Below, one piece after another: positions 1,257 to 60,685 of a stretch of DNA of 64,000 nucleotides (position 1 is the first letter of the stretch; the number at the start of each line of letters is the position of its first letter). This DNA is from an uncultured Bacilli bacterium (GTDB taxonomy: Bacteria > Bacillota_I > Bacilli_A > RF39 > UBA660), in contig CAKPHZ010000001.1 in the NCBI GenBank assembly GCA_934162265.1, positions 3,547-67,546 of the forward strand. Reading direction: 5' to 3'. The position numbers and the translations under genes are program-made. Below the pieces are notes generated by a model. The model worked only from the letters and a program-made list of their open reading frames with translations. It made no database searches and was not told where the DNA came from.

Positions 1257-3719
1257 TTAACTTTTAGTATTTTTTGTAAGAGATTTTTTCTTACTTTCAT
1301 TTAGGACTTGTAAATAATTATAATTTTTTTGATATTCATCTCTTGCCCTTTCATCATAAGAAAGACATGCAGATATGATTTGATAATTTTTATTAATTCC
1401 TACAAACCAATCTTTATTTCCAGTGATAACTAAGAAATCTTTTACCTCTAAAGGAATATAAAATTCTTTTTCTTCTCTCTTTTCTTTTTCACTGATTGCT
1501 TTTTCCTCTATGCTACTGTAATAAATACTATTGATAAGCATATGTAATCTTTCTTGATCAAGTTCTGTTGTAGGATCAAAAATATATGGTTTATTTCTTT
1601 TTTGAGGAATTCTTACTGGATTATCATAATACTTAGGAAGAGCATTTTCTTTTTTTGCTATAATATAATTCGTTACTTCTTTTTTCATATAATCATTATA
1701 GCAAGTACTTCTTAAAGGAATATAATGTTTGAAATCAATTTTTTCATCAGTTGTTTGACTCATATATTCTGGATAATGAATATCTGTCATGGTAACTAAA
1801 TCAATATCACATCTTTTATCTTCTATAATTTGGTTACTCATCTTTTTCAGTATTTTTAATATCATAAAAAATAAGTTTGGATCTTTAATGACAGGATCAA
1901 TACTATTAAGATTTAGCATATTTCCATTTACTGTTGCAGGAATTACATATCTTACTTCTAGATAATCAATATAAAATACTGTCCCACATGGATTTAATAA
2001 GCAATAATTTAAAAACTCTTCTCCCTTTCCTCCTACTTTAAAGCAAGATCCTGTATCAATACCACTTACTAATAAATATTCATCCTCATAGTCTGCTGAT
2101 TGATAAGAGGCAGATTCAAATGAACCATAAATCTTAGGAAGAGCTCCTGCTATTTTTCTTTTTCTCTTTTTATGTAATTCTAATGTTCTTCTTAATATTT
2201 CTTCTGGTGGTTCTGTACAATATTTTCTTGATTTTAATATTTTTGAAAAAGTAGAAAGGGTAATATCTGTTTCATCTGGTTTTTCTTGATATAAAAATAA
2301 TTTAGAAATATCAATAATATCTAAAATAGAATGAATAGATAGAGAATTATCATTAATAATCTTTTCTTCTATACTAGCATAATTTTTGATAATCATAGGA
2401 AAACATTCTTCAATTCCTAATGCTTCATGATTGAATACCATTCTAAGTAAACAGTCGTTATCTTTTTTATAATTTCCTAATAAGAAGCTAGAAAACTGTT
2501 GATTGGGAATTGCTTTTCCTTGATGATTAAATTGATAGTCCATTTCTATATTTGAAAATATAGTATACAATTCCTTTAATTTTATTGAATCTTTTCTTTT
2601 TACTTCTTTGTAATGTTTAATATTTCTTGTAATTTCTTTTTGTTCATAATAGTCTTCTCTTTCTTTAATCACTTTTAGAATTAAATTTTTAAGTTGTTCC
2701 TTTCTTTCTTCTGGATAAGGAATTTTTCTAACTTCTTTTAAAGCACTCATAAAAGGAAAAGCATTTTTTCTTAAATCATAGCCACAAAAATTTTCAAAAA
2801 AGAGGATATCATTCTTATCTAAAGCACTAAGAATATCTTTTTCTATTCCAAAGTAATAAAATTTTTCTTGATTTTCTAAACGGAATTCTCTTCTTTTATC
2901 CTTAATTAAAGCGATACTTGCTCGTTTGATTGAGGCTGGTGTAGCATAAGTAAAATAATCTTCTAATATTTTTTTTGTATTATCATACCCTAGTGCTATA
3001 TACATCTTAGAAAGAGTAATTAATAATTCTTCATGAGAAATATCATGATCTTTTGATAAAGCAATTTCAATTAAAGAATTCATTTGTTTTCTAGATACTT
3101 TTTGAAAGTATTCTTTTGTAAATGTTTTTCCTAAAATAGTAATTTTATCTTTATTAATAGAATTTACTTTTACTAAAAGATGAAATTTTGTATAGATTAA
3201 TAATTCCCATTCATTTTCTATTTTTAAAAGAGCAAGAGAAGAAAAGTTTTTATCTTGTTTTGCGTTTTCTACTAATCCTTCTAAATAAGAGTCTAAAGGG
3301 ATATGTTTATCTTCTAAAATTTTATCATTAAAAATAGTATTTAAATTAGAATTACTTAAAAGAGAATAGAACTGATGAAGAGGAAGTTTTTCTAAATATT
3401 TTTTTACTTTTTCTTGAGCAATTTTAGAATGGTTTAAAGTTTCGCTATTAAAAATAAAATTTCTTATCTCTTCACTGACTAAATCTAATATTTCTTTTTT
3501 TAAACGATTAGGGGGAAGGGAGAGAATTTTTTCTAATAAACTACAATCAGATAATAATATTTTCTTTTTATCATCCGATAAATTTAGAAAAATGATATTT
3601 AATTCTGTCATACTTATCTTTGCAAATTCTTGATTGTGAATTAATTGTTGTAATTCTTCTAAAGATATGTTTTGAAAATACTGACGAAGTTCTACTATGT
3701 TTTTAGTTTGATTGATCAT
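1257..3719 (-). CDS. Large hypothetical protein, about 820 aa, no recognisable domain
   Basis: Long uninterrupted ORF. The preferred start is the ATG at 3719 (MINQTKN), preceded by an AAAGGAG RBS; the ORF-track start at 3779 would place that RBS inside the coding region. The protein is Asn/Lys/Ile-rich and matches no family I recognise. Confidence 0.5.
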   Translation of the reverse strand: MINQTKNIVELRQYFQNISLEELQQLIHNQEFAKISMTELNIIFLNLSDDKKKILLSDCSLLEKILSLPPNRLKKEILDLVSEEIRNFIFNSETLNHSKIAQEKVKKYLEKLPLHQFYSLLSNSNLNTIFNDKILEDKHIPLDSYLEGLVENAKQDKNFSSLALLKIENEWELLIYTKFHLLVKVNSINKDKITILGKTFTKEYFQKVSRKQMNSLIEIALSKDHDISHEELLITLSKMYIALGYDNTKKILEDYFTYATPASIKRASIALIKDKRREFRLENQEKFYYFGIEKDILSALDKNDILFFENFCGYDLRKNAFPFMSALKEVRKIPYPEERKEQLKNLILKVIKEREDYYEQKEITRNIKHYKEVKRKDSIKLKELYTIFSNIEMDYQFNHQGKAIPNQQFSSFLLGNYKKDNDCLLRMVFNHEALGIEECFPMIIKNYASIEEKIINDNSLSIHSILDIIDISKLFLYQEKPDETDITLSTFSKILKSRKYCTEPPEEILRRTLELHKKRKRKIAGALPKIYGSFESASYQSADYEDEYLLVSGIDTGSCFKVGGKGEEFLNYCLLNPCGTVFYIDYLEVRYVIPATVNGNMLNLNSIDPVIKDPNLFFMILKILKKMSNQIIEDKRCDIDLVTMTDIHYPEYMSQTTDEKIDFKHYIPLRSTCYNDYMKKEVTNYIIAKKENALPKYYDNPVRIPQKRNKPYIFDPTTELDQERLHMLINSIYYSSIEEKAISEKEKREEKEFYIPLEVKDFLVITGNKDWFVGINKNYQIISACLSYDERARDEYQKNYNYLQVLNESKKKSLTKNTKS

Positions 3720-3838
3720 ATGAATACTCCTTTTTACTAAATATAGATAAATTGTATCAAAAGATAAAGATTTTATCAATCTATTTTATTTTATTAAATA
3801 CTAAAAAAATTAGAGATAATCCCTAATTTTTGATATTT

Positions 3839-23822: not shown

Positions 23823-25019
23823 CTATTTTTTTATTCGTTTTTTGGCAATGCTTTTTTCATAATCGTAATTACCTTTTAATAAATGATAGAATTTATTCAT
23901 CTCTTCTTCTATTTCTTCTTTTACCCATGAATATTCTTCATCGTCTACAACAAAAATATCACTCATATATTCTAGTAAGTTATTTTTAATTACTTGAACT
24001 TTTTCATTATCTTGATGATAATTTATCTTTTCCCATTGACTAAGGAAATCTGTTATTGCATTTTTTTGCCTTTGAGCTGATCTTGTAGATTGATATCTCA
24101 AGATAAAGTTATCAATATCTGTCTCTTCTACTCCTAATTGATATAGTAAGGAAAGACAATATATCATCTCTTCGTTGGTTAATTCTTTTAATAATTCATT
24201 GTGGTAAAGATTATAGTATTTTCCTAGTTCTTTTCTGATTTTTTTATATTCTTTATCATTTAAGTATTTCTTTTTTGGTTCTAATTTTTCAAATGATATC
24301 TTACTTTTATTTTGTTCTTTATTTCTTTTTTGATAATTTTTATTTAAAGTTATTTCTATATATTTTAATATTTTTGTGGATACTTCCATATCTTTTAAAG
24401 AAAGAAGAATATTTTGAATATCTTGTTCATCAAAAGTATTTTGTTTTTCAAAATATGATGAAAGAATTATTGCATTACTTTGACGGAATTTAGTAATATT
24501 TGTTGCGTGTTTTTCAGAGAATGAGAAAATTTCTTCTATTTTTTCCGTTAATTCTGGATTTGTTTTTGCTTGCTCACTTAAAGGTCTCATTTCATTCTTC
24601 AAAATAAGCTCGTAGACTTCTTTTTTTGACATTGTTTTAAATTGGTGATTTTTGACATCATTTATGTTAACATAAATGGTATCTTCTTCTAAAACATTTA
24701 CCTTGATATTTCTTTGGACAAGCATAAGAATAATTGATGTACATTCTTTTGCGTTTAAACCAGATTTCTCTAACAAATCTGATAAAATTTTAAAATCCAA
24801 AAAAATATTTTCGCTAGGTTGTTCTAAATTTTTTAGTAAATTTAAAAAGCTACTAGCAATTATATATTCTTTATCTAATTGTTTTAAGGCTTTAATATAT
24901 TTTTGTGGTTTTTGTTCATCTAGTGCAAGTAGAGCTCCAGCTAAGAATCCATCATATGTTTCTTTTCTGCTCTGTTCCAAATAATTAGAAAACTTCTGTA
25001 CGGCTTTTGCTGTATTCAT
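23823..25019 (-). CDS. Hypothetical all-helical protein, about 398 aa
   Basis: Long ORF. The preferred start is MNTAKAV at 25019, which follows an AAAGGGGGAG RBS. No recognisable domain. Confidence 0.45.
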   Translation of the reverse strand: MNTAKAVQKFSNYLEQSRKETYDGFLAGALLALDEQKPQKYIKALKQLDKEYIIASSFLNLLKNLEQPSENIFLDFKILSDLLEKSGLNAKECTSIILMLVQRNIKVNVLEEDTIYVNINDVKNHQFKTMSKKEVYELILKNEMRPLSEQAKTNPELTEKIEEIFSFSEKHATNITKFRQSNAIILSSYFEKQNTFDEQDIQNILLSLKDMEVSTKILKYIEITLNKNYQKRNKEQNKSKISFEKLEPKKKYLNDKEYKKIRKELGKYYNLYHNELLKELTNEEMIYCLSLLYQLGVEETDIDNFILRYQSTRSAQRQKNAITDFLSQWEKINYHQDNEKVQVIKNNLLEYMSDIFVVDDEEYSWVKEEIEEEMNKFYHLLKGNYDYEKSIAKKRIKK

Positions 25020-25136
25020 AAAAAATCTCCCCCTTTTTCCTCTGTATTTTATCATAATCATTAAACTCTGTCAAAAAAAATTTGACCTTAAATAAAATAT
25101 AATATACAATATTATTGTTAAGGGGAGGAATGAAAG

Positions 25137-25864: not shown

Positions 25865-27124
25865 TTATATTCCTTTTTTTCCTTTATTGTGCTTTGATCT
25901 TTGATATTGATCTTCAAACTCAAGTGCTTCTGGACTTCCCCAGCAAAATTTTTCATGTTCTACTAATTTTTGATAATCTTCCTCTTTATATAAATAATCT
26001 GTATCTAAAATAACAATATCTCCTGGTTTTAATGTTTCTTCTTCTAAAGTATTTTGAATTCCTCGATTTTCATTATCTAATGATATATTTTTATTCCAAT
26101 GAATTTTATTTTCTTTTAAAAGAACACCTAAATTTTGTGATTTAATATCAGCAAAAACAATACCCCTTTCTCTAAGTGAAACATAAAATTCATATAAATC
26201 CTCCTTTGAAATAAAAATACTTGTATCTACATTTTCCATTACTTCGATAGTTGTTTCAAGATTTGATATTTTGGATAAATCAATTCGAATAATTGGTTGT
26301 AAAATAGTTTTATCATAAGGAATGTTATAACTTCTTCTTTTTTTGCCAATTTTTATTATTTTACTCCCTATTTTTATTACTTCTGAGTAAGCTCCTCCTC
26401 CTATATGTTTTATATCTTTATATTCTAAATTTTCATGATTTAATATTTCTTCAATTAAATCTAGTACTAAATCAGTTAAATTTTCTAGTTCTGTTTCCTT
26501 ATTTTCTTTTGGATTTACATCTACTTTTTCTGTCTTGGTGTATTCTATTTTTTCGGTTGTTTCATTTCCAAAATTTTTTATTATTGTATTTGATTTCTGT
26601 TTATTTGGAAAAAATAAGAACTCTATGTATTCTTTTTTGTTTTCTATCAAAAATTGATTTATTATATCCTGATTTTTTTCTTTGAAAAAATTTGTCCTTT
26701 TTTTTATTAGCTTCTTATCTAATCCGTTTCCTGTTAATAAAGTAAAAATATATTCATTTGGAATATTTCCTAATATTATTTCTAAATTATCATTAAAGTA
26801 TCGTTTATTGTTTAAATAATTCATTCTTAATAATTCTTTAAATTCTCCTAGAGTTTTGCATTTTTGAATTAATAATAAATAATTATCTTTAATTGTTTGT
26901 CTTATTTCTTTATCTTGATACAGTACATTTACCATAGGAATTAAATCTGTATCACTACATTCTCCTATTAAAGTAGTATAATTTCTTCTTAATAATTCAG
27001 TAACTGGAACGTGTTGTAAAAAACTTACTTTATCATTTTTATATAAATCTGAAACCCATTTTGGGGTAACAGATTTTAAATGTATTGCTTTTTGAAGCTC
27101 TAATTCAAATTTTTTTGCATTCAT
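25865..27124 (-). CDS. Hypothetical protein with a C-terminal protein-kinase-like fold
   Basis: Kinase-like elements are a glycine loop IGGGAYSEV, a Lys in IIKIGKK, a catalytic-loop-like ADIKSQNLGV (D-x-K-x-x-N) and a DFG-like ILDTDY. The N-terminal ~230 aa are helical. The start at 27124 has an RBS. Confidence 0.45.
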   Translation of the reverse strand: MNAKKFELELQKAIHLKSVTPKWVSDLYKNDKVSFLQHVPVTELLRRNYTTLIGECSDTDLIPMVNVLYQDKEIRQTIKDNYLLLIQKCKTLGEFKELLRMNYLNNKRYFNDNLEIILGNIPNEYIFTLLTGNGLDKKLIKKRTNFFKEKNQDIINQFLIENKKEYIEFLFFPNKQKSNTIIKNFGNETTEKIEYTKTEKVDVNPKENKETELENLTDLVLDLIEEILNHENLEYKDIKHIGGGAYSEVIKIGSKIIKIGKKRRSYNIPYDKTILQPIIRIDLSKISNLETTIEVMENVDTSIFISKEDLYEFYVSLRERGIVFADIKSQNLGVLLKENKIHWNKNISLDNENRGIQNTLEEETLKPGDIVILDTDYLYKEEDYQKLVEHEKFCWGSPEALEFEDQYQRSKHNKGKKGI

Positions 27125-27168
27125 AATTCTTTTTCCTTTCATGAAAATACTGATTCAGTATTTTTCTC

Positions 27169-29679: not shown

Positions 29680-29796
29680 TTAGCTCGCCTTCGAACTTCA
29701 ACACCTGGAATGCCGATGCGAACGGCTATAACGTCAATCCTTCTGGAATGCTTAATCATTGGGGGTGGACTTCGAATTCGATCGGCGTGCGCCCAG
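29680..29796 (+). repeat. DGR template repeat (TR), 117 bp
   Basis: GC-rich (about 52%) block in an otherwise ~27% GC intergenic region. Aligned without gaps to the reverse complement of 32111-32227, it shows 18 mismatches, and all 18 are adenines in this copy (18 of 26 TR adenines). All 91 non-A positions are identical. The 3' segment tcgatcggcgtgcgcccag is identical in both copies, like an initiation-of-mutagenic-homing (IMH) region. The TR is in frame with the VR and carries 8 AAY codons. Confidence 0.88.
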
Positions 29797-30084
29797 ATTC
29801 CTACTATAATTAGTAAATTACTAATACCACCGAGAATAATTGATCATGGTTGATTATGAGAAGAAGTAATAGCCTAGTTTTAGGCTATAATCTATATATA
29901 GATTGGAAACAAGATTAGTCAGTAAGGAAATAATCCTTAAGTATATAATATAGACGTAATAAAACGGTAGTTTTTGTTACTATTGCTATATTGAAGTTTT
30001 ATCTATTAAATGATAGATAGAACTTTTTCTTATTAAATTTTGTTCTATTCATTGAATAAAATTAATAGGAAAAGAAAGGAAAAA

Positions 30085-30495
30085 ATGACTTTAAAAGATG
30101 AATATCAAAAATTGAAACAAAAATATCCTAAAAAAATCATTCTTATTCAATCTGGAACCTTTTATGTTACTTTCTTTCAAGATGCTGAAATTCTTAATTA
30201 TCTTTTTTCTTATCAAATCCATGACGATAAAGTTGGCTTTCCTATTAAAATGAAAGATAAAATTTTATTTAATTTAAGAAATGAGAAGCTCAATTATTTA
30301 GTGCTAGATAAAGAAAAACGAGAGTTTTCTTTTGATGATAATGATATTTTCTCGTATGAGGAGATATTAAAAATTTCTTCTCAATATGCAAAACAATCTA
30401 GTGATACGCAAGAGCTGTTGGATAGAATAAAGTCTTTGATTGAGATTAATCCTAACTATTATGTTAAAATAAAGGAATTTATTGATGAACTCTAA
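30085..30495 (+). CDS. DGR accessory protein with MutS N-terminal mismatch-binding domain (MutS-I)-like fold (MSL-type)
   Basis: The segment TLKDEYQKLKQKYPKKIILIQSGTFYVTFFQDAE aligns with the MutS domain I consensus [35 protein letters not shown]. The mismatch-intercalating Phe is conserved (GTFY) but the Glu is replaced by Val. The start at 30085 has a GAAAGGA RBS. Confidence 0.6.
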   Translation: MTLKDEYQKLKQKYPKKIILIQSGTFYVTFFQDAEILNYLFSYQIHDDKVGFPIKMKDKILFNLRNEKLNYLVLDKEKREFSFDDNDIFSYEEILKISSQYAKQSSDTQELLDRIKSLIEINPNYYVKIKEFIDEL

Positions 30496-30823
30496 TTTTC
30501 AGTTATTACAAAAAACAGAGAAAACTATTCAATACATTCAAAAATTTTTACAAAATTATCCTAAAAAGGAATATATTTTAAAAGGAAATATAGAAAAAAA
30601 TACTTATTCGTTAATTGAATTGATTTTTTCGTATCAAATTAATCATACTGAACGTATTCGTCAAAAATACTTAAAGGATTTTTTAATTCAGTTATCTATG
30701 TTAAATTTTTATATGGAAATTAGTTTTAATAAAAAATATATTAGTACAAGGCAATATGAAGTGATTGGTAAATTTTTAATTGAAATTAGAAAAATTACTT
30801 ACGGAATTTTAAAAAGTGAATAA
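30485..30823 (+). CDS. avd: Accessory variability determinant (Avd)-like four-helix-bundle protein
   Basis: About 112-aa helical protein immediately upstream of and overlapping the RT start. Its size, position and YP-K/R pattern fit Avd (a 23S rRNA intervening-sequence-protein-like four-helix bundle). Confidence 0.6.
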   Translation: MNSNFQLLQKTEKTIQYIQKFLQNYPKKEYILKGNIEKNTYSLIELIFSYQINHTERIRQKYLKDFLIQLSMLNFYMEISFNKKYISTRQYEVIGKFLIEIRKITYGILKSE

Positions 30824-31939
30824 TCAATTCAATTACCAAACAATTCTAACGATTAAAAATTTACAAATTATTTATCATCAAATAAAATTAAATAGTAGAC
30901 ATAAAGAAAAATTTTTAAATTATGAATTATTTTTAACCTCAAATTTATTTACTATTTTTTTTATTTTAAAATCAAAAAAATATCATCACTCTTGCTATAA
31001 TATTTTCTTAATTGTTGATCCAAAATTTAGAATTATTATGAGTGAAAATATTAATGATAAAATTGTTAATCATTTTATTAGTCAATACTTGTTATTCCCA
31101 ACGTTAGAACCAAAAATGATTCCTATGAGTGTTGCTACTAGAAGAGGTAAAGGGACAGATTTAGGCATTCGTTATATAAAAAAATATATTCATTCATTAA
31201 AAGAAAAATATGATACGTTTTTTTTTTGAAATGTGATGTTCATAAATTTTTTTATTCTATTGATCATCAATGTTTAATTCATAAATTAGAAAAAATTTAT
31301 GAAAATAAAGATACAATGACCCTATTAACAGAAATTATTAATAGTACTAATCAGCCGTATATTAATCAAAAAATCAATTTAGAAATTGAAAAAATTAAAA
31401 AAAATATTTTAGCTTCTCACTCTTCTTTGAAAGAAAAAGAAAGAAAGATAAAAGAATTAAAACGATTACCACGATATGAATCAGGAAAAGGATTACCAAT
31501 AGGAAATATGAGTAGCCAAATATTAGCAACCTTTTATTTAAATGATATTGATCATTATATCAAAGAAAAATTACATATTAAGTATTATGTGCGCTACATG
31601 GATGATTTTATTTTATTTCACCCTAATAAAGAATATTTAAAGTTTTGCTTAAAAGAAATTGATGCTAAATTAAAAGAAATAAAATTACATTTAAATAATA
31701 AAACACAATTAGCAGACATACATCAAGGATTTAATTTTTTAGGATATCGCTTTTTATTAAAAGAAAAAAAATTAATTACAAAAATAAATAAAAAAACAAA
31801 AAGAAAAATATATCATCGTTGTAAAAATAAATCTCTTAAAGAAAAACAAAGTATATTAAAAAACTATAAGGGAGTATTTAAATATGCAGATGTTAATGGA
31901 TATATTTTTCATTTACAATTTCAAAAAAAGAAAAAATAA
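30816..31939 (+). CDS. DGR reverse transcriptase (reading frame interrupted by a -1 frame change at the T10 tract 31218-31227)
   Basis: RT motifs appear in order across two ORFs: motif 1 IVDPKFRII...DKIVNHFI and the SVATRRGKG region (30816-31229 frame), then motif 2 CDVHKFFYSIDHQ, motif 3 GLPIGNMSSQILATFYLNDID (the DGR-specific IGxxxSQ), YVRYMDDFILF (YxDD) and FNFLGYRF (31226-31939 frame). An eleventh T, or a -1 ribosomal slip on T TTT TTT next to TGA, fuses the two frames. Confidence 0.85.
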
Positions 31940-32033
31940 TTTTTCAATTATTTGGTATATGTAGTAGGAATATCAACCAAAAATTGCCCACAAAATGATG
32001 AGTCATTTTGTGGGTTTTCTTTCTTTTCGATGA

Positions 32034-34283
32034 TTATTTTGAAATAATATAAGGGTTTGCTGCCGTTCCATTTCCTTCGCTTATCAGAGAATCAGCATTC
32101 AGATTGATAACTGGGCGCACGCCGATCGAAGACGAAGGCCACCCCCAAGGAAAAAGCAGTCCAGAAGGATTGACGTAAGAGCCGAACGCAACGGCAGACC
32201 AGGTGAGGAAGCGCGAAGGCGAGCTAAGCCAATAGTAAGCTCCTGTATATAAATAATATTCTTTATTGTCATACCCTTGCTTTCCTCCGGCGTATGCTAC
32301 TTCATCTGCTGTTAATAATCCTACTGGATAGGTTAATTCTCCGTTACCTAATGTTGAAGTACTAGATACAGTAAATTGATCCACTTTTCTTGGACATTTA
32401 TAAGAAGGTGTTTTATTTGTTACATTTCTTTGATAAGAACCATAATAGGTAGTGCTATTTAAAGTAAAGCCATCTCCTGAAGCAATGCTTCTATCATTGC
32501 AAAATATATTATCAGTTAAATATTTTGAATATCCCTTATCCTGAATATTGGTTTTATACCAACTATCTATTTTTTGTTTAATAGCGCTATCATATTCATC
32601 TGTATAGGTGGATTCATAGCTTTTTGAAAGATAAGAATGATATGCTTTTACTTTTACTTGGCTTATATTTACGTAAGAAGCTATTTCTACTAATGTTGTA
32701 CAAGTTCCTGTTTTAGAGGTACTAAAACATGTGTATTTATAATTGCTACTATTACTTCCCCAAACACTTTCTAGTGTTCCACTTGTTATATTCCCCGATA
32801 ATGATAATTTTTTTGTTGAATCATTTGTCGTATAACTATCCGAAAAATAATAAGTATTATTGGCATTTATATTATTGTAATTTAAATTTGTTGCTGTTGT
32901 GTGTTGTAATGTTTTGGATAACCCATATTTATAACCTACCATCGCTGAATCATACGGGTCAGAATTAAAGGTTGAATTTCCGATGGTTACATTACCACCT
33001 GTATCTGATGTAGAAGTTCCAGAATATATCATTCTTATGCTCCCATCTCCGTTAATTCTAACAATTCTCCATATATATCCTGCAAATGATACATAATTAT
33101 TTAACACTCTACCTCTATAATAATAACTTTCTCCATAGTCATCATCTGCAACATATAAGGCACTACTAGATAAATTTACTATCTCTTTTGTTGAACTATA
33201 TTGATCTACTTTCGTTGCTTTATATGTTGTTGTCGTTCCTGATGTAGAAGTAGTCGCTGAGTAGATTACATACATTGTACTACAACTTCCAGTATCTGTT
33301 CTAACACAGGTGTAATACTTTTTATCACTTGTAGATAAATTATCTGTCATGTTTGTTCTAGTTGTATTAGAAATACTATATTGTCCTGTATTTGCATTGA
33401 ATGTATAATTTGTACCAAAATATATTTTATCTGTAGTACTTACTAAACTACTTCCTGTTAAATTAAAAGCATTTGTTTGTGTATATGTAATCATTGGAGA
33501 TGTTTCGTTAAAATTAGCTACTCTTGTTTTGATTTCTTCTTTTGCTTGTTCTACACTACTAGCATATTTGTCTGTTATTAATAAACAATCACTTAGTTTG
33601 GTGATATTATTATTTGTACAATAATCACTATCAAAATCACCAAATGTAGCTGTTGTTCCTGTTCCGTTGCTTGAATAAAATTCTACTAATCCTCCATATA
33701 CTCCTGTATCTGTTTTTATTTGATCTTTTCCATTTTCACTAATCCATAAAGCGATATAATATTCTTTTGTTTCATTTGGGGAAATTGAAAAGTTTTTTTC
33801 TAAATTAGATTTTTCCATACCATTTGTTTTATATTCACTTTTTCTAGTTGTTGCATTATCAAGTAATTCCCATTTTAAATTTTGATAAATGTTATTTGCT
33901 CCACTTGCAACAAGAGTGATGGAACCAGTTAACTTTAAGGTTGCTTTTCCGGTATTTTTAAGTGTTATTTTATAAACTTCACAGGAAACATTCTGATTAG
34001 AATCTACACAACTTCCAACCCCACCTGTTCCTTTTAAAGCATTTTTCAATGCATCATCCAACAGAGGAACTAACTTGGACGTCCCATTACTAGATGATGG
34101 AGTAACTTTATTTACTATTAAACTTACATTAGAAGTTGACATGTTTCCAGCAAATGTATTTGTATTTTTTCCTTCTGTATATAAATAAGCATATGTAGCA
34201 CTTGTCATTATTATAGTATAAATTATTATGCTAAAAGTGAATATTAAAATCTTTCTTTTCGATATTTTTTTTAAACTTCTCAT
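32034..34283 (-). CDS. DGR target (variable) protein: signal-anchored, Ser/Thr/Asn-rich surface protein with a C-terminal VR-encoded ligand-binding region (probable C-type-lectin/FGE-like fold)
   Basis: 749 aa. The N-terminus has a signal or transmembrane anchor (MRSLKKISKRKILIFTFSIIIYTIIMTSATYA), and the protein has many N-x-S/T sites. The C-terminus ...SSPSRFLTWSAVAFGSYVNPSGLLFPWGWPSSSIGVRPV is encoded by the VR, followed by 26 further residues. Confidence 0.8.
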   Translation of the reverse strand: MRSLKKISKRKILIFTFSIIIYTIIMTSATYAYLYTEGKNTNTFAGNMSTSNVSLIVNKVTPSSSNGTSKLVPLLDDALKNALKGTGGVGSCVDSNQNVSCEVYKITLKNTGKATLKLTGSITLVASGANNIYQNLKWELLDNATTRKSEYKTNGMEKSNLEKNFSISPNETKEYYIALWISENGKDQIKTDTGVYGGLVEFYSSNGTGTTATFGDFDSDYCTNNNITKLSDCLLITDKYASSVEQAKEEIKTRVANFNETSPMITYTQTNAFNLTGSSLVSTTDKIYFGTNYTFNANTGQYSISNTTRTNMTDNLSTSDKKYYTCVRTDTGSCSTMYVIYSATTSTSGTTTTYKATKVDQYSSTKEIVNLSSSALYVADDDYGESYYYRGRVLNNYVSFAGYIWRIVRINGDGSIRMIYSGTSTSDTGGNVTIGNSTFNSDPYDSAMVGYKYGLSKTLQHTTATNLNYNNINANNTYYFSDSYTTNDSTKKLSLSGNITSGTLESVWGSNSSNYKYTCFSTSKTGTCTTLVEIASYVNISQVKVKAYHSYLSKSYESTYTDEYDSAIKQKIDSWYKTNIQDKGYSKYLTDNIFCNDRSIASGDGFTLNSTTYYGSYQRNVTNKTPSYKCPRKVDQFTVSSTSTLGNGELTYPVGLLTADEVAYAGGKQGYDNKEYYLYTGAYYWLSSPSRFLTWSAVAFGSYVNPSGLLFPWGWPSSSIGVRPVINLNADSLISEGNGTAANPYIISK
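32111..32227 (-). repeat. DGR variable repeat (VR), 117 bp, at the 3' end of the target gene
   Basis: Reverse complement of the TR, with 18 substitutions located exclusively at TR adenine positions. It encodes residues SSPSRFLTWSAVAFGSYVNPSGLLFPWGWPSSSIGVRP. Relative to the TR there are 13 changed codons (for example N to R/L/S/F/Y, H to P, T to P). Confidence 0.88.
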
Positions 34284-55979: not shown

Positions 55980-56154
55980 CTTACCACCTACTTTAAGTAA
56001 AGTATATAATAAAAAGATATTCTTTTCAATGGAAAGGTTACTATTCACAGCTGAATAATAAAAAATATACACAGATTATGAGAAATTAAGTAAAAATAGC
56101 TCATAGTCTTTTTATAATGCAAAATATTTGATACAATAAAAAAAAGAAGGATAC

Positions 56155-56847
56155 GTGATGAAAATGGCAGAAATAAGTTTATCAAAATTACAAAAAAGAG
56201 TGACAAAATTAGAAAAAGATAATGCCGTGTTAAGAGATTTGTTAGAAGAAAGAAAACAAAAGCAATATAATGCAGAAAAACAATTAGAGTATTATAAAAA
56301 AAATCTAGAAAAAATAGTAAATACTGCTGTAAAAAAAGTAACTGAAGAACTAATGAAAGAAGTAAATAAATTAAAAGAAGAAAACGAACATTTAAAGAGA
56401 ATATTAAATCATGATAGTAGTAATAGTGGAATACCAACAAGCAGGACAAAAATTGGAGAAGCAAAAAGAGTTCCTAACTCTAGAAAAAAGAGTGAGCTGA
56501 AGAAAGGTGGACAACCAGGACATAAAAAACATAAATTAGAAAAGTTTGCAGATGATGAAATAACAGATACATATACATACGAAATAAAGAAACCAAAATG
56601 CAAAGAATGTGGAGGAAAATTAGAATTAATTGGAAAAAGATGTAAAGATGAATTTGATATCGAAATAAGATTAGTCAAGAGAAGAAATGAATTTTGTGAA
56701 TATAAATGTAGTTGCTGTGATAAAGTGATAAAAGTACCAATACCAGATAGATTAAAAGAGGAAAATCAATATGGAAGTAATGCTCAAGCATTAGCAATAT
56801 CACTAGTAAATGAAGGATATGTTTCATTTAGAAGAACAAGAGATTAA
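56155..56847 (+). CDS. IS66-family transposase, N-terminal part (leucine zipper plus zinc finger)
   Basis: Heptad-Leu coiled coil followed by the zinc-finger motif KCKECGGKL...CSCCDKV. Confidence 0.75.
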   Translation: MMKMAEISLSKLQKRVTKLEKDNAVLRDLLEERKQKQYNAEKQLEYYKKNLEKIVNTAVKKVTEELMKEVNKLKEENEHLKRILNHDSSNSGIPTSRTKIGEAKRVPNSRKKSELKKGGQPGHKKHKLEKFADDEITDTYTYEIKKPKCKECGGKLELIGKRCKDEFDIEIRLVKRRNEFCEYKCSCCDKVIKVPIPDRLKEENQYGSNAQALAISLVNEGYVSFRRTRD

Positions 56848-56870
56848 TAAGTGGTTTTACTGGTGGAGAA

Positions 56871-57722
56871 ATGGTAATGAGTGAAGGCTTCATATCAAAG
56901 TTACAAAAAAGATGTTACGACAAACTAGAAAATTTTGATAATGAAATTCATAAGAAAATACTAAGTCAAAGTATTTTGCATTGGGATGATACCGCTATAA
57001 GTATAAATGGAAAACAATCATGCTTAAGATTTTATGGAAATGAGAAAATAAAATATTACAAGGCACACGAACAAAAGAATAAAGCTGGAATTGATGAAGA
57101 TGGTATATTAAAGTTTTTATCAAAAGATACAGTTGTGATGCATGATCATAATTTAGTTAATTATAATGAGGATTATGATTTCACAAATGTAGAGTGTTGT
57201 GTTCATCTAATTAGAGATTTGAAAGAACTAAATGATTGTTTTCCAAGAGAATGGATTAATAAACTTATATCATTACTAGTAAATACTAATAATTTGAGAA
57301 AAGAATATATTAACAAAAATATATTACAATTCGATTATGAAGTATCAGACAATGTAATAAGAGAATATGATAAAATAATCGAAGAAGCTCAAAAAGTAAA
57401 TTCTAATGATTATAATGAGTATTACAGTAAAGATGAAAGTAGACTAATAAAAAGACTAATTAGATTTAAGGAAAATTACTTATTATGGGTTCTTAGATTT
57501 GATATTCCATTTTCTAATAATCTCAGTGAGAGAAGTTTAAGAAGTAGCAAAACGAAAATGAAGGTATCTGGACAGTTTTCAAATATTAAAAATGCAGAAT
57601 ATCTTGCTAGAATAAAATCGTATATTGAGACTTGTAAAAGTAATGATATAAATCCTCACGAAGCATTGATTAAACTTATAGAAGACAATCCATATACTTT
57701 AAGAGATATGAAAATAAACTAA
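56871..57722 (+). CDS. IS66-family transposase, C-terminal catalytic part
   Basis: CCVHLIRDLKEL matches the IS66 CWAHARRKF motif. It is in a different reading frame from the N-terminal part, in both IS copies. Confidence 0.75.
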   Translation: MVMSEGFISKLQKRCYDKLENFDNEIHKKILSQSILHWDDTAISINGKQSCLRFYGNEKIKYYKAHEQKNKAGIDEDGILKFLSKDTVVMHDHNLVNYNEDYDFTNVECCVHLIRDLKELNDCFPREWINKLISLLVNTNNLRKEYINKNILQFDYEVSDNVIREYDKIIEEAQKVNSNDYNEYYSKDESRLIKRLIRFKENYLLWVLRFDIPFSNNLSERSLRSSKTKMKVSGQFSNIKNAEYLARIKSYIETCKSNDINPHEALIKLIEDNPYTLRDMKIN

Positions 57723-58917: not shown

Positions 58918-59117
58918 GTTATACCTCCTAAAGTGATTATTAGTATAACATATTTCTTATTAAGTTACTAGGTTAAATTAAGAATTTGGATCTCTGTCAG
59001 TTACTATTCACAGCTGAATAATAAAAAATATACACAGATTATGAGAAATTAAGTAAAAATAGCTCATAGTCTTTTTATAATGCAAAATATTTGATACAAT
59101 AAAAAAAAGAAGGATAC

Positions 59118-59810
59118 GTGATGAAAATGGCAGAAATAAGTTTATCAAAATTACAAAAAAGAGTGACAAAATTAGAAAAAGATAATGCCGTGTTAAGAGA
59201 TTTGTTAGAAGAAAGAAAACAAAAGCAATATAATGCAGAAAAACAATTAGAGTATTATAAAAAAAATCTAGAAAAAATAGTAAATACTGCTGTAAAAAAA
59301 GTAACTGAAGAACTAATGAAAGAAGTAAATAAATTAAAAGAAGAAAACGAACATTTAAAGAGAATATTAAATCATGATAGTAGTAATAGTGGAATACCAA
59401 CAAGCAGGACAAAAATTGGAGAAGCAAAAAGAGTTCCTAACTCTAGAAAAAAGAGTGAGCTGAAGAAAGGTGGACAACCAGGACATAAAAAACATAAATT
59501 AGAAAAGTTTGCAGATGATGAAATAACAGATACATATACATACGAAATAAAGAAACCAAAATGCAAAGAATGTGGAGGAAAATTAGAATTAATTGGAAAA
59601 AGATGTAAAGATGAATTTGATATCGAAATAAGATTAGTCAAGAGAAGAAATGAATTTTGTGAATATAAATGTAGTTGCTGTGATAAAGTGATAAAAGTAC
59701 CAATACCAGATAGATTAAAAGAGGAAAATCAATATGGAAGTAATGCTCAAGCATTAGCAATATCACTAGTAAATGAAGGATATGTTTCATTTAGAAGAAC
59801 AAGAGATTAA
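59118..59810 (+). CDS. IS66-family transposase, N-terminal part (copy 2)
   Basis: Identical to 56155-56847. Confidence 0.75.
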   Translation: MMKMAEISLSKLQKRVTKLEKDNAVLRDLLEERKQKQYNAEKQLEYYKKNLEKIVNTAVKKVTEELMKEVNKLKEENEHLKRILNHDSSNSGIPTSRTKIGEAKRVPNSRKKSELKKGGQPGHKKHKLEKFADDEITDTYTYEIKKPKCKECGGKLELIGKRCKDEFDIEIRLVKRRNEFCEYKCSCCDKVIKVPIPDRLKEENQYGSNAQALAISLVNEGYVSFRRTRD

Positions 59811-59833
59811 TAAGTGGTTTTACTGGTGGAGAA

Positions 59834-60685
59834 ATGGTAATGAGTGAAGGCTTCATATCAAAGTTACAAAAAAGATGTTACGACAAACTAGAAAATTTTG
59901 ATAATGAAATTCATAAGAAAATACTAAGTCAAAGTATTTTGCATTGGGATGATACCGCTATAAGTATAAATGGAAAACAATCATGCTTAAGATTTTATGG
60001 AAATGAGAAAATAAAATATTACAAGGCACACGAACAAAAGAATAAAGCTGGAATTGATGAAGATGGTATATTAAAGTTTTTATCAAAAGATACAGTTGTG
60101 ATGCATGATCATAATTTAGTTAATTATAATGAGGATTATGATTTCACAAATGTAGAGTGTTGTGTTCATCTAATTAGAGATTTGAAAGAACTAAATGATT
60201 GTTTTCCAAGAGAATGGATTAATAAACTTATATCATTACTAGTAAATACTAATAATTTGAGAAAAGAATATATTAACAAAAATATATTACAATTCGATTA
60301 TGAAGTATCAGACAATGTAATAAGAGAATATGATAAAATAATCGAAGAAGCTCAAAAAGTAAATTCTAATGATTATAATGAGTATTACAGTAAAGATGAA
60401 AGTAGACTAATAAAAAGACTAATTAGATTTAAGGAAAATTACTTATTATGGGTTCTTAGATTTGATATTCCATTTTCTAATAATCTCAGTGAGAGAAGTT
60501 TAAGAAGTAGCAAAACGAAAATGAAGGTATCTGGACAGTTTTCAAATATTAAAAATGCAGAATATCTTGCTAGAATAAAATCGTATATTGAGACTTGTAA
60601 AAGTAATGATATAAATCCTCACGAAGCATTGATTAAACTTATAGAAGACAATCCATATACTTTAAGAGATATGAAAATAAACTAA
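59834..60685 (+). CDS. IS66-family transposase, C-terminal part (copy 2)
   Basis: Identical to 56871-57722. Confidence 0.75.
   Translation: MVMSEGFISKLQKRCYDKLENFDNEIHKKILSQSILHWDDTAISINGKQSCLRFYGNEKIKYYKAHEQKNKAGIDEDGILKFLSKDTVVMHDHNLVNYNEDYDFTNVECCVHLIRDLKELNDCFPREWINKLISLLVNTNNLRKEYINKNILQFDYEVSDNVIREYDKIIEEAQKVNSNDYNEYYSKDESRLIKRLIRFKENYLLWVLRFDIPFSNNLSERSLRSSKTKMKVSGQFSNIKNAEYLARIKSYIETCKSNDINPHEALIKLIEDNPYTLRDMKIN

Follow-up and report, generated by a model that had tools for sequence, protein, structure and literature searches.

Can a diversity-generating retroelement (DGR) go on rewriting its target gene while the gene for its reverse transcriptase (RT) is out of frame? This question is raised by a locus on contig CAKPHZ010000001.1 of assembly GCA_934162265.1, of which we analyzed a stretch of 64,000 nucleotides (hereafter, the window). 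Near the end of a gene for a 749-amino-acid (aa) protein lies a repeat that is very probably the variable repeat (VR) of a chromosomal DGR in an uncultured, AT-rich gut Bacilli bacterium. The locus reads, in order, template repeat (TR), conserved structured RNA, msl, avd, RT, terminator and the convergent 749-aa target gene. The features of a DGR are present: a TR/VR pair with differences confined to adenines, RT motifs, Avd, a VR at the 3’ end of the target, and a non-coding TR.

The repeat pair differs only at template adenines

A repeat search returned one inverted repeat pair near the target gene, positions 29680-29796 and 32111-32227, 117 nt long and 85% complementary. The first copy, the TR, lies on the plus strand in the intergenic region between priA and msl and is non-coding; the second, the VR, is read from the minus strand and encodes, in frame, residues 687-724 of the 749-residue target. 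Compared base by base, the two copies show 18 mismatches, and 18/18 fall on TR adenines, which confirms the TR/VR reading of the initial annotation of this DNA. The changed positions represent 18 of the 26 adenines of the TR (A>T, nine; A>C, eight; A>G, one), and the hypergeometric probability of all 18 mismatches landing on these 26 of the 117 positions is 2.4e-15. G+C content is 52% in the TR and 60% in the VR, against ~26% for the genome. A plain duplication of a segment, or a repeat arising by chance, would account for the existence of a repeat and for nothing beyond it. The confinement of all 18 mismatches to the adenines of one copy, the RT, Avd and MSL genes between the two copies, and the one-way TR-to-VR pattern in the population data described below make that explanation extremely improbable.

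Frame 2 translations of the two copies are SSPSNFNTWNADANGYNVNPSGMLNHWGWTSNSIGVRP and SSPSRFLTWSAVAFGSYVNPSGLLFPWGWPSSSIGVRP, exactly the frame and the peptides assigned earlier. The peptides differ at 12 residues; an earlier count of 13 had included Asn705, which is unchanged. The TR holds eight AAY codons, and recounting reproduced the report that seven of the eight are altered in the VR. There are 16 mutable codons with A at position 1 or 2: the eight AAY codons together with AGC, ACC, GAT, TAT, ATG, CAT, ACT and ATC. The GGA and CCA codons of the TR carry A at the third position only, where substitutions are silent. About 1.3e14 protein variants are possible from the 16 mutable codons. Downstream of the VR, 25 sense codons (26 by the earlier count) precede the stop.

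The 3’ end of the VR has the look of an initiation of mutagenic homing (IMH) sequence. It comprises 20 nt, TTCGATCGGCGTGCGCCCAG (32111-32130, minus strand), that are GC-rich, the same in TR and VR, and hold two unmutated adenines; the initial annotation had noticed this identical end and had given its length as 19 nt, which form part of it. Homology between the copies ends abruptly after ...CCCAG in both, with the flanks diverging directly. The sequence GGCGTGCGCCCAG occurs at only two sites in the window even when 2 mismatches are allowed, where 0 would be expected by chance, and this end is identical in 9/9 VRs from nine strains of the species (the window and eight further contigs, L006, L085 and L087-L092). 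The 20-nt identical GC-rich end, with homology stopping right after it, fits an IMH-like end.

Much of this organization is shared with the DGR of Bordetella phage BPP-1 (Mtd, bRT, Avd, TR-Sp RNA, IMH): A-to-N changes between TR and VR, an Avd protein, a GC-rich identical VR 3’ end, a structured RNA immediately downstream of the TR, and the use of AAY codons as mutable positions in a lectin-type fold. The two systems differ in two respects, both of which count against reading the locus as a DGR. No difference between IMH and IMH* is visible inside the repeat, and the VR is not followed by a GC-rich hairpin of the Bordetella phage kind; a hairpin or cruciform at this position was considered and rejected, as the region folds no better than shuffled sequence (folding z = +1.5). 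A second VR for the TR was not found within the window. Nothing found here contradicts the core DGR claim.

The variable repeat closes a domain with a predicted C-type-lectin-like fold

The target gene (32034-34283, minus strand) was taken from the list of open reading frames (ORFs). A full-length AlphaFold model of its 749-aa product (predicted local distance difference test score, pLDDT, 87.7) comprises an N-terminal helix, a beta-sandwich, a beta-rich middle and a C-terminal domain. The N-terminal helix is hydrophobic (residues 9-39; 34167-34259, minus strand). A guess that the N-terminus is a signal peptide of the SipW/TasA type was dropped, because Pfam and NCBIfam gave nothing to support it at E up to 10. 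The C-terminal domain (residues 371-749; 32037-33173, minus strand) carries the VR and, when modeled alone, reached a pLDDT of 95.3.

Structure prediction had been suggested as a check on a proposed C-type-lectin fold, and the model bears the proposal out. The VR-bearing C-terminal domain is predicted to be an enlarged C-type-lectin-like fold, matching the Thomasclavelia ramosa IgA protease (PDB 9qa6) with a score of 13.8 over 182 residues at 20% identity. Lower scores were obtained for a Bacteroides fimbrial protein (4eps, 7.3), the C-terminal domain of Legionella Lcl (8q4e, 6.2), the DGR variable protein TvpA (2y3c, 5.2), dozens of animal C-type lectin domains (4-5) and FGE-like proteins (~4). 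The only significant Foldseek match was likewise 9qa6 (E 8e-4); with the full-length model as query, Foldseek returned weak Ig-like matches to the N-terminal sandwich only.

Sequence searches gave no such link. No Pfam or NCBIfam family matched the target at E up to 10, whether the C-terminal 148 or 379 aa were used, and this includes FGE-sulfatase (PF03781) and DUF1566 (PF07603). A search of PDB chain sequences with the C-terminal domain, as a single sequence or as a 73-sequence profile, returned nothing relevant. Of the DGR targets named in the initial annotation, TvpA of Treponema denticola was recovered as a fold match. Besides lacking a Pfam match to FGE-sulfatase or DUF1566, the domain differs from TvpA and other C-type-lectin-fold variable proteins in its size, about twice that of a C-type lectin domain, and in an insertion of ~100 residues of beta structure.

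The closest fold to the variable domain is the N-terminal domain of the T. ramosa IgA protease. That domain has an enlarged C-type-lectin-like core similar to Lcl; it binds zinc and is dispensable for IgA cleavage (PMC12237041). It differs from the domain described here in that no match exists at the sequence level, even with a profile, and in that it is N-terminal and not a known DGR target.

Within the model, the VR forms the last strands of the C-terminal domain, and the mutable positions are predicted to alternate (i, i+2) along strands 684-693 and 698-704. More than 1700 proteins are homologous to the target, almost all of them unnamed and from metagenomes; members of the family are secreted or lie on the surface of uncultured Bacilli of the human gut. 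In close homologues the sequence on either side of the VR hardly varies, and the columns that derive from A-containing codons are hypervariable. The target ORF is intact in all natural variants of the VR. Two homologues (P0044 and P0050) end in ...GLRLRSASAQLSI, which is a different reading frame of the VR and reflects frameshifting indels inside it.

The cassette is of the MSL/Avd type and its reverse transcriptase is split

Directly 3’ of the TR lies a conserved structured RNA of ~120 nt (29797-29916, plus strand), predicted to fold into a multi-hairpin junction closed by pairing of UUCC (29798-29801) with GGAA (29905-29908). Of 25 predicted pairs in an alignment of seven species, eight show compensatory changes on both sides. 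The region had no match in Rfam. In the Bordetella phage DGR a structured RNA, the spacer (Sp) RNA, is found next to the TR, and the RNA described here is likely its counterpart.

Two accessory genes follow on the same strand. The first, msl (30085-30495, plus strand), encodes a 136-aa MutS-domain-I-like accessory protein (Pfam MutS_I, 1.4e-7); the second, avd (30482-30823, plus strand), matches Pfam PF22296 bAvd at 6e-12, with 46.4 bits exceeding the cut-off of 40. Its match to the NCBIfam model NF033474 DivGenRetAVD (4.6e-13, 49 bits) is under the curated equivalog cut-off of 80. The msl gene is kept beside avd-RT in 23 related cassettes, where the msl-avd-RT layout recurs. No HRDC match was found among the ORFs scanned with Pfam and NCBIfam. 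By its gene content the element can be assigned to the MSL/Avd type, Architecture D of Wu et al. (2018; PMC5758913), who describe the MSL accessory class; the Legionella DGR is of this architecture. Like other MSL-containing DGRs, the locus combines a small MutS-domain-I-like gene with avd and RT, has its TR on the strand of the RT gene, shows adenine-specific mutagenesis and places its VR at the target 3’ end. Unlike them, it has a target convergent to the cassette, a host that is an uncultured AT-rich gut Bacilli bacterium, and an RT that is frame-broken at a run of ten T residues (T10; nine, T9, in two strains) in every strain sampled.

The RT is encoded in two frames that meet at this run. 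The N-terminal frame (30816-31229, plus strand; 137 aa) ends ...YDTFFF and then TGA; the T10 homopolymer occupies 31218-31227 (plus strand), with the TGA right after it. The C-terminal frame (31226-31939, plus strand; 237 aa) holds motif A, IGNMSSQ and YMDD, and matches Pfam RVT_1 at 2.4e-14. An intact RT of 374 aa would result from one more T in the run, from a -1 ribosomal slip on UUU-UUU-UUU-UGA, or from one added U in the mRNA. Fusing the two frames restores the RT motif ...FFFLKCDVHKFFYSIDH, and a -1 shift or one extra T at the run reads ...YDTFFFLKCDVHKFFYSIDH, an RT motif that is continuous in other species. The RT is a single ORF in 20/20 examined examples from other species, and relatives at 47-69% identity are intact and lie in avd-containing cassettes.

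An alternative genetic code was rejected as the cause of the split: TGA ends five other ORFs of the window, and long ORFs are normal in table 11. Homopolymers are error-prone in some sequencing technologies, and the break could in principle be a sequencing or assembly error that conceals a true T11. That explanation is very unlikely, because the contigs differ in sample and assembler and three run lengths are resolved. The same T10 is present in seven contigs (window, L006, L087, L088, L089, L090 and L092) from different samples and assemblers (MEGAHIT-style k141 names, SPAdes-style NODE names, scaffolds), the T9 alleles of L085 and L091 are distinct from it, and so is a T12 allele, ending ...FFFFEM, among database proteins. 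The T10 break also recurs in independent assemblies from several ENA datasets, including Hadza metagenome-assembled genomes (MAGs). Among the matches listed, split proteins, in the form of N-terminal RT fragments, occur on ~96 contigs and the in-frame protein on none. No in-frame RT allele was present among 5.8 billion protein clusters (>238 aa, >70% identity), where the only match above 70% identity to the fused RT query was a cluster of the 237-aa fragment. A scan of JGI metagenomes for the T-run context, with alleles of any length, gave no match of any kind and is uninformative on T11.

A second run that truncates the RT was seen in some strains. It is an A-run at 31760-31771, where variants (proteins P0251, P0254 and P0244) yield C-terminal RT fragments of 182 or 187 aa, or an in-frame deletion of 12 nt.

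Natural strains record recent rewriting of the variable repeat

Comparison of the nine strains showed that their TRs are nearly invariant and that their VRs are all different. In the seven T10 strains, 86/86 mismatches within the repeat are at TR adenines. Substitutions private to the TR of a lineage reappear in its VRs. L006 and L090 share a TR change (G>T at index 45) that is also in their own VRs, and L087 and L088 share an A>C at index 89 that is likewise in theirs; L092 has C at index 89 in its TR, and its VR carries it. A new TR adenine at index 92 of L087 and L088 is mutated to C or G in their VRs. Two pairs of strains are particularly close: between L087 and L088 there is no difference in the 2133 nt of the gene outside the VR and there are 15 in the 117 nt of the VR, and between L006 and L090 there are none outside and seven inside. 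Pairs that carry the same gene and different VRs are the product of recent mutagenic retrohoming.

The two T9 strains present another picture. L085 and L091 carry frameshifting indels in msl, avd and RT, 8/40 of their TR/VR mismatches are at non-A positions, and their TR changes are not found in the VRs. In this comparison of natural strains, damage to the local cassette thus goes with loss of homing, and the T10 state with ongoing homing.

These data bear on whether the DGR is dead, with the RT frameshift a plain loss of function and the TR/VR differences relics of past activity. An RT out of frame in every strain, a run that varies between T9, T10 and T12, a second A-run that also truncates the RT in some strains, and the clear decay of msl, avd and RT in two strains would all be in keeping with a dead element. 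Yet the VRs of strains whose target genes are otherwise identical are distinguished by 7 to 15 adenine-templated positions, and substitutions private to the TR of a lineage recur in the VRs of that lineage. The msl and avd genes and both RT frames are intact in all seven T10 strains, and comparison of the window with L006, which represent two T10 clades, gave 14 synonymous and 7 non-synonymous changes across these four frames, an excess of synonymous changes. In the RT alone the two clades differ by 6 synonymous and 6 non-synonymous changes (pN/pS ~0.2, from small numbers). Loss of function would moreover need T10 to have arisen independently, and very recently, in each lineage. We consider a dead DGR unlikely.

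Two further observations concern these strains. At TR index 88 (window position 29768), L085, L091 and L092 have G>A, which makes TGA in the VR frame and, if copied faithfully, would cut the target short; the L092 VR has TGG at this place, the mutable A having been altered in the course of homing. In L092 (98-2704), the target beside the cassette carries an N-terminal part and an upstream HTH_3 gene typical of a paralogous locus, and as judged from its sequence this target is a recombinant between paralogues.

Target paralogues of 60-82% identity are present in L002, L003, L004 and L086, elsewhere on the chromosome and with no RT at the locus. The one in L003 is flanked by two more large ORFs that lack a Pfam match and are possibly paralogues themselves. 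The target paralogues have GC-rich VR-like ends that are not templated by the TR at 29680-29796. The L086 paralogue, which comes from the same sample, was considered as a target of this TR and rejected, with 45 mismatches of which only 19 are at A. These ends suggest that the lineage has further TRs, or remote targets.

How the reverse transcriptase may be produced

Because T10 strains with identical target genes have different VRs that track private TR changes, we infer that slippage or a -1 frameshift allows the RT to be expressed. The RT would be made at a low level, through transcriptional slippage or a -1 slip of tRNA-Phe at UUU-UGA, and from the sequence data we give this close to an even chance. 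The T10 run could then act as a throttle, or a length-variable switch, on hypermutation, keeping RT scarce while VR turnover is maintained; this proposal we hold tentatively, at a little under an even chance.

Bacterial RNA polymerase slips on runs of at least 9 A or T (PMC5009743). The locus resembles genes that use homopolymer slippage, such as Thermus dnaX, insertion sequence (IS) elements and the poly(A) tracts of endosymbionts (PMC5009743), in having T10 at a junction of two frames, a stop codon immediately after the run, and two frames that together make one protein. In the literature searched, we found no DGR RT expressed by slippage or frameshifting, and no DGR under such control.

Several points weigh against recoding of the RT. 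On reading the sequence around the T-run, no Shine-Dalgarno-like element or hairpin stimulator is evident. The substitution counts in the cassette are small. Homopolymers often change in length, and T10 could for that reason have several origins. T9 and T12 forms of the run exist too, as would be expected of a decaying gene. Finally, with 64 kb of the genome in view, a second intact RT might act in trans.

Under this last alternative, homing is real, driven by an intact DGR RT elsewhere, and the local RT is a pseudogene. Related genomes do have paralogous targets at loci without an RT, and the VRs of those paralogues, not being templated by the TR at 29680-29796, imply other TRs and possibly other RTs in the lineage. 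However, a pattern-based scan found no second RT locus from CAKOUR01, the MAG that represents the species, among the 80 loci listed, the lesions in the local cassette of the T9 strains coincide with VRs that no longer follow the TR, and both local RT frames are intact in the T10 strains. We regard supply of the RT in trans as improbable.

The steps of diversification that we propose are as follows. The TR (29680-29796) and the structured RNA behind it would be transcribed, the RNA possibly serving in priming. The RT with Avd, and probably MSL, would copy the TR into cDNA, placing random bases opposite template adenines. The cDNA would then replace the VR (32111-32227), anchored by integration at the GC-rich identical 3’ end. 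Up to 16 codons, eight of them AAY, would in this way be rewritten in the last beta-strands of the enlarged C-type-lectin-like domain. This domain lies at the C-terminal end of the 749-aa protein, which has a signal or anchor helix at its N-terminus, and the variable face of the domain may bind a ligand. The Bordetella phage DGR is the model from which we propose the priming role of the RNA, the integration at the 3’ end and the binding of a ligand.

Genomic surroundings of the locus

The convergent RT and target genes are separated by a strong bidirectional intrinsic terminator (31986-32015), whose 13-bp stem is followed by T-runs on either strand. Around the TR, promoter-like matches did not exceed chance in this AT-rich DNA. 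The flanking genes are priA, rpmF, yceD, efp, rpmG and a gene for a PBP2B-like transpeptidase, with RNase HIII, FtsX, RecG and BipA farther out; because of these neighbors we place the locus on a cellular chromosome and not in a phage. The window is identical to an ENA gut-metagenome contig and 96% identical to a Hadza MAG labeled ‘uncultured Bacilli bacterium’. Related cassettes are found in MAGs labeled Bacilli, Tenericutes, Acholeplasmataceae, CAG:822 and CAG:451.

Elsewhere in the window, two 100% identical 1678-bp copies of an IS66-family element (56045-57722 and 59008-60685) stand on either side of a 217-aa ORF. The copies contain ORFs of 230 aa and 283 aa (DDE_Tnp_IS66, 1.6e-16). Three large ORFs are without a Pfam match: 1257-3779 (840 aa), 23823-25061 (412 aa) and 25865-27142 (425 aa).

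Discussion

Apart from the frameshifted RT, the repeat described here is an ordinary DGR variable region, and as first written the finding adds another member to a known class, a textbook case. Its target belongs to a large family that has no Pfam annotation, and the likeness of the variable domain to the N-terminal domain of the T. ramosa IgA protease provides a lead on what such domains bind in the gut. The natural strains constitute an unusually clean population record of mutagenic retrohoming, in which the same genes carry differing VRs that track private TR mutations, and in all strains behind this record the RT gene is out of frame. A frameshifted yet apparently working RT is the part of the system that deserves follow-up. 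If the RT is indeed expressed by slippage, DGR survey pipelines that require an intact RT ORF would discard active elements, and slippage at a homopolymer would add a new means of control over hypermutation.

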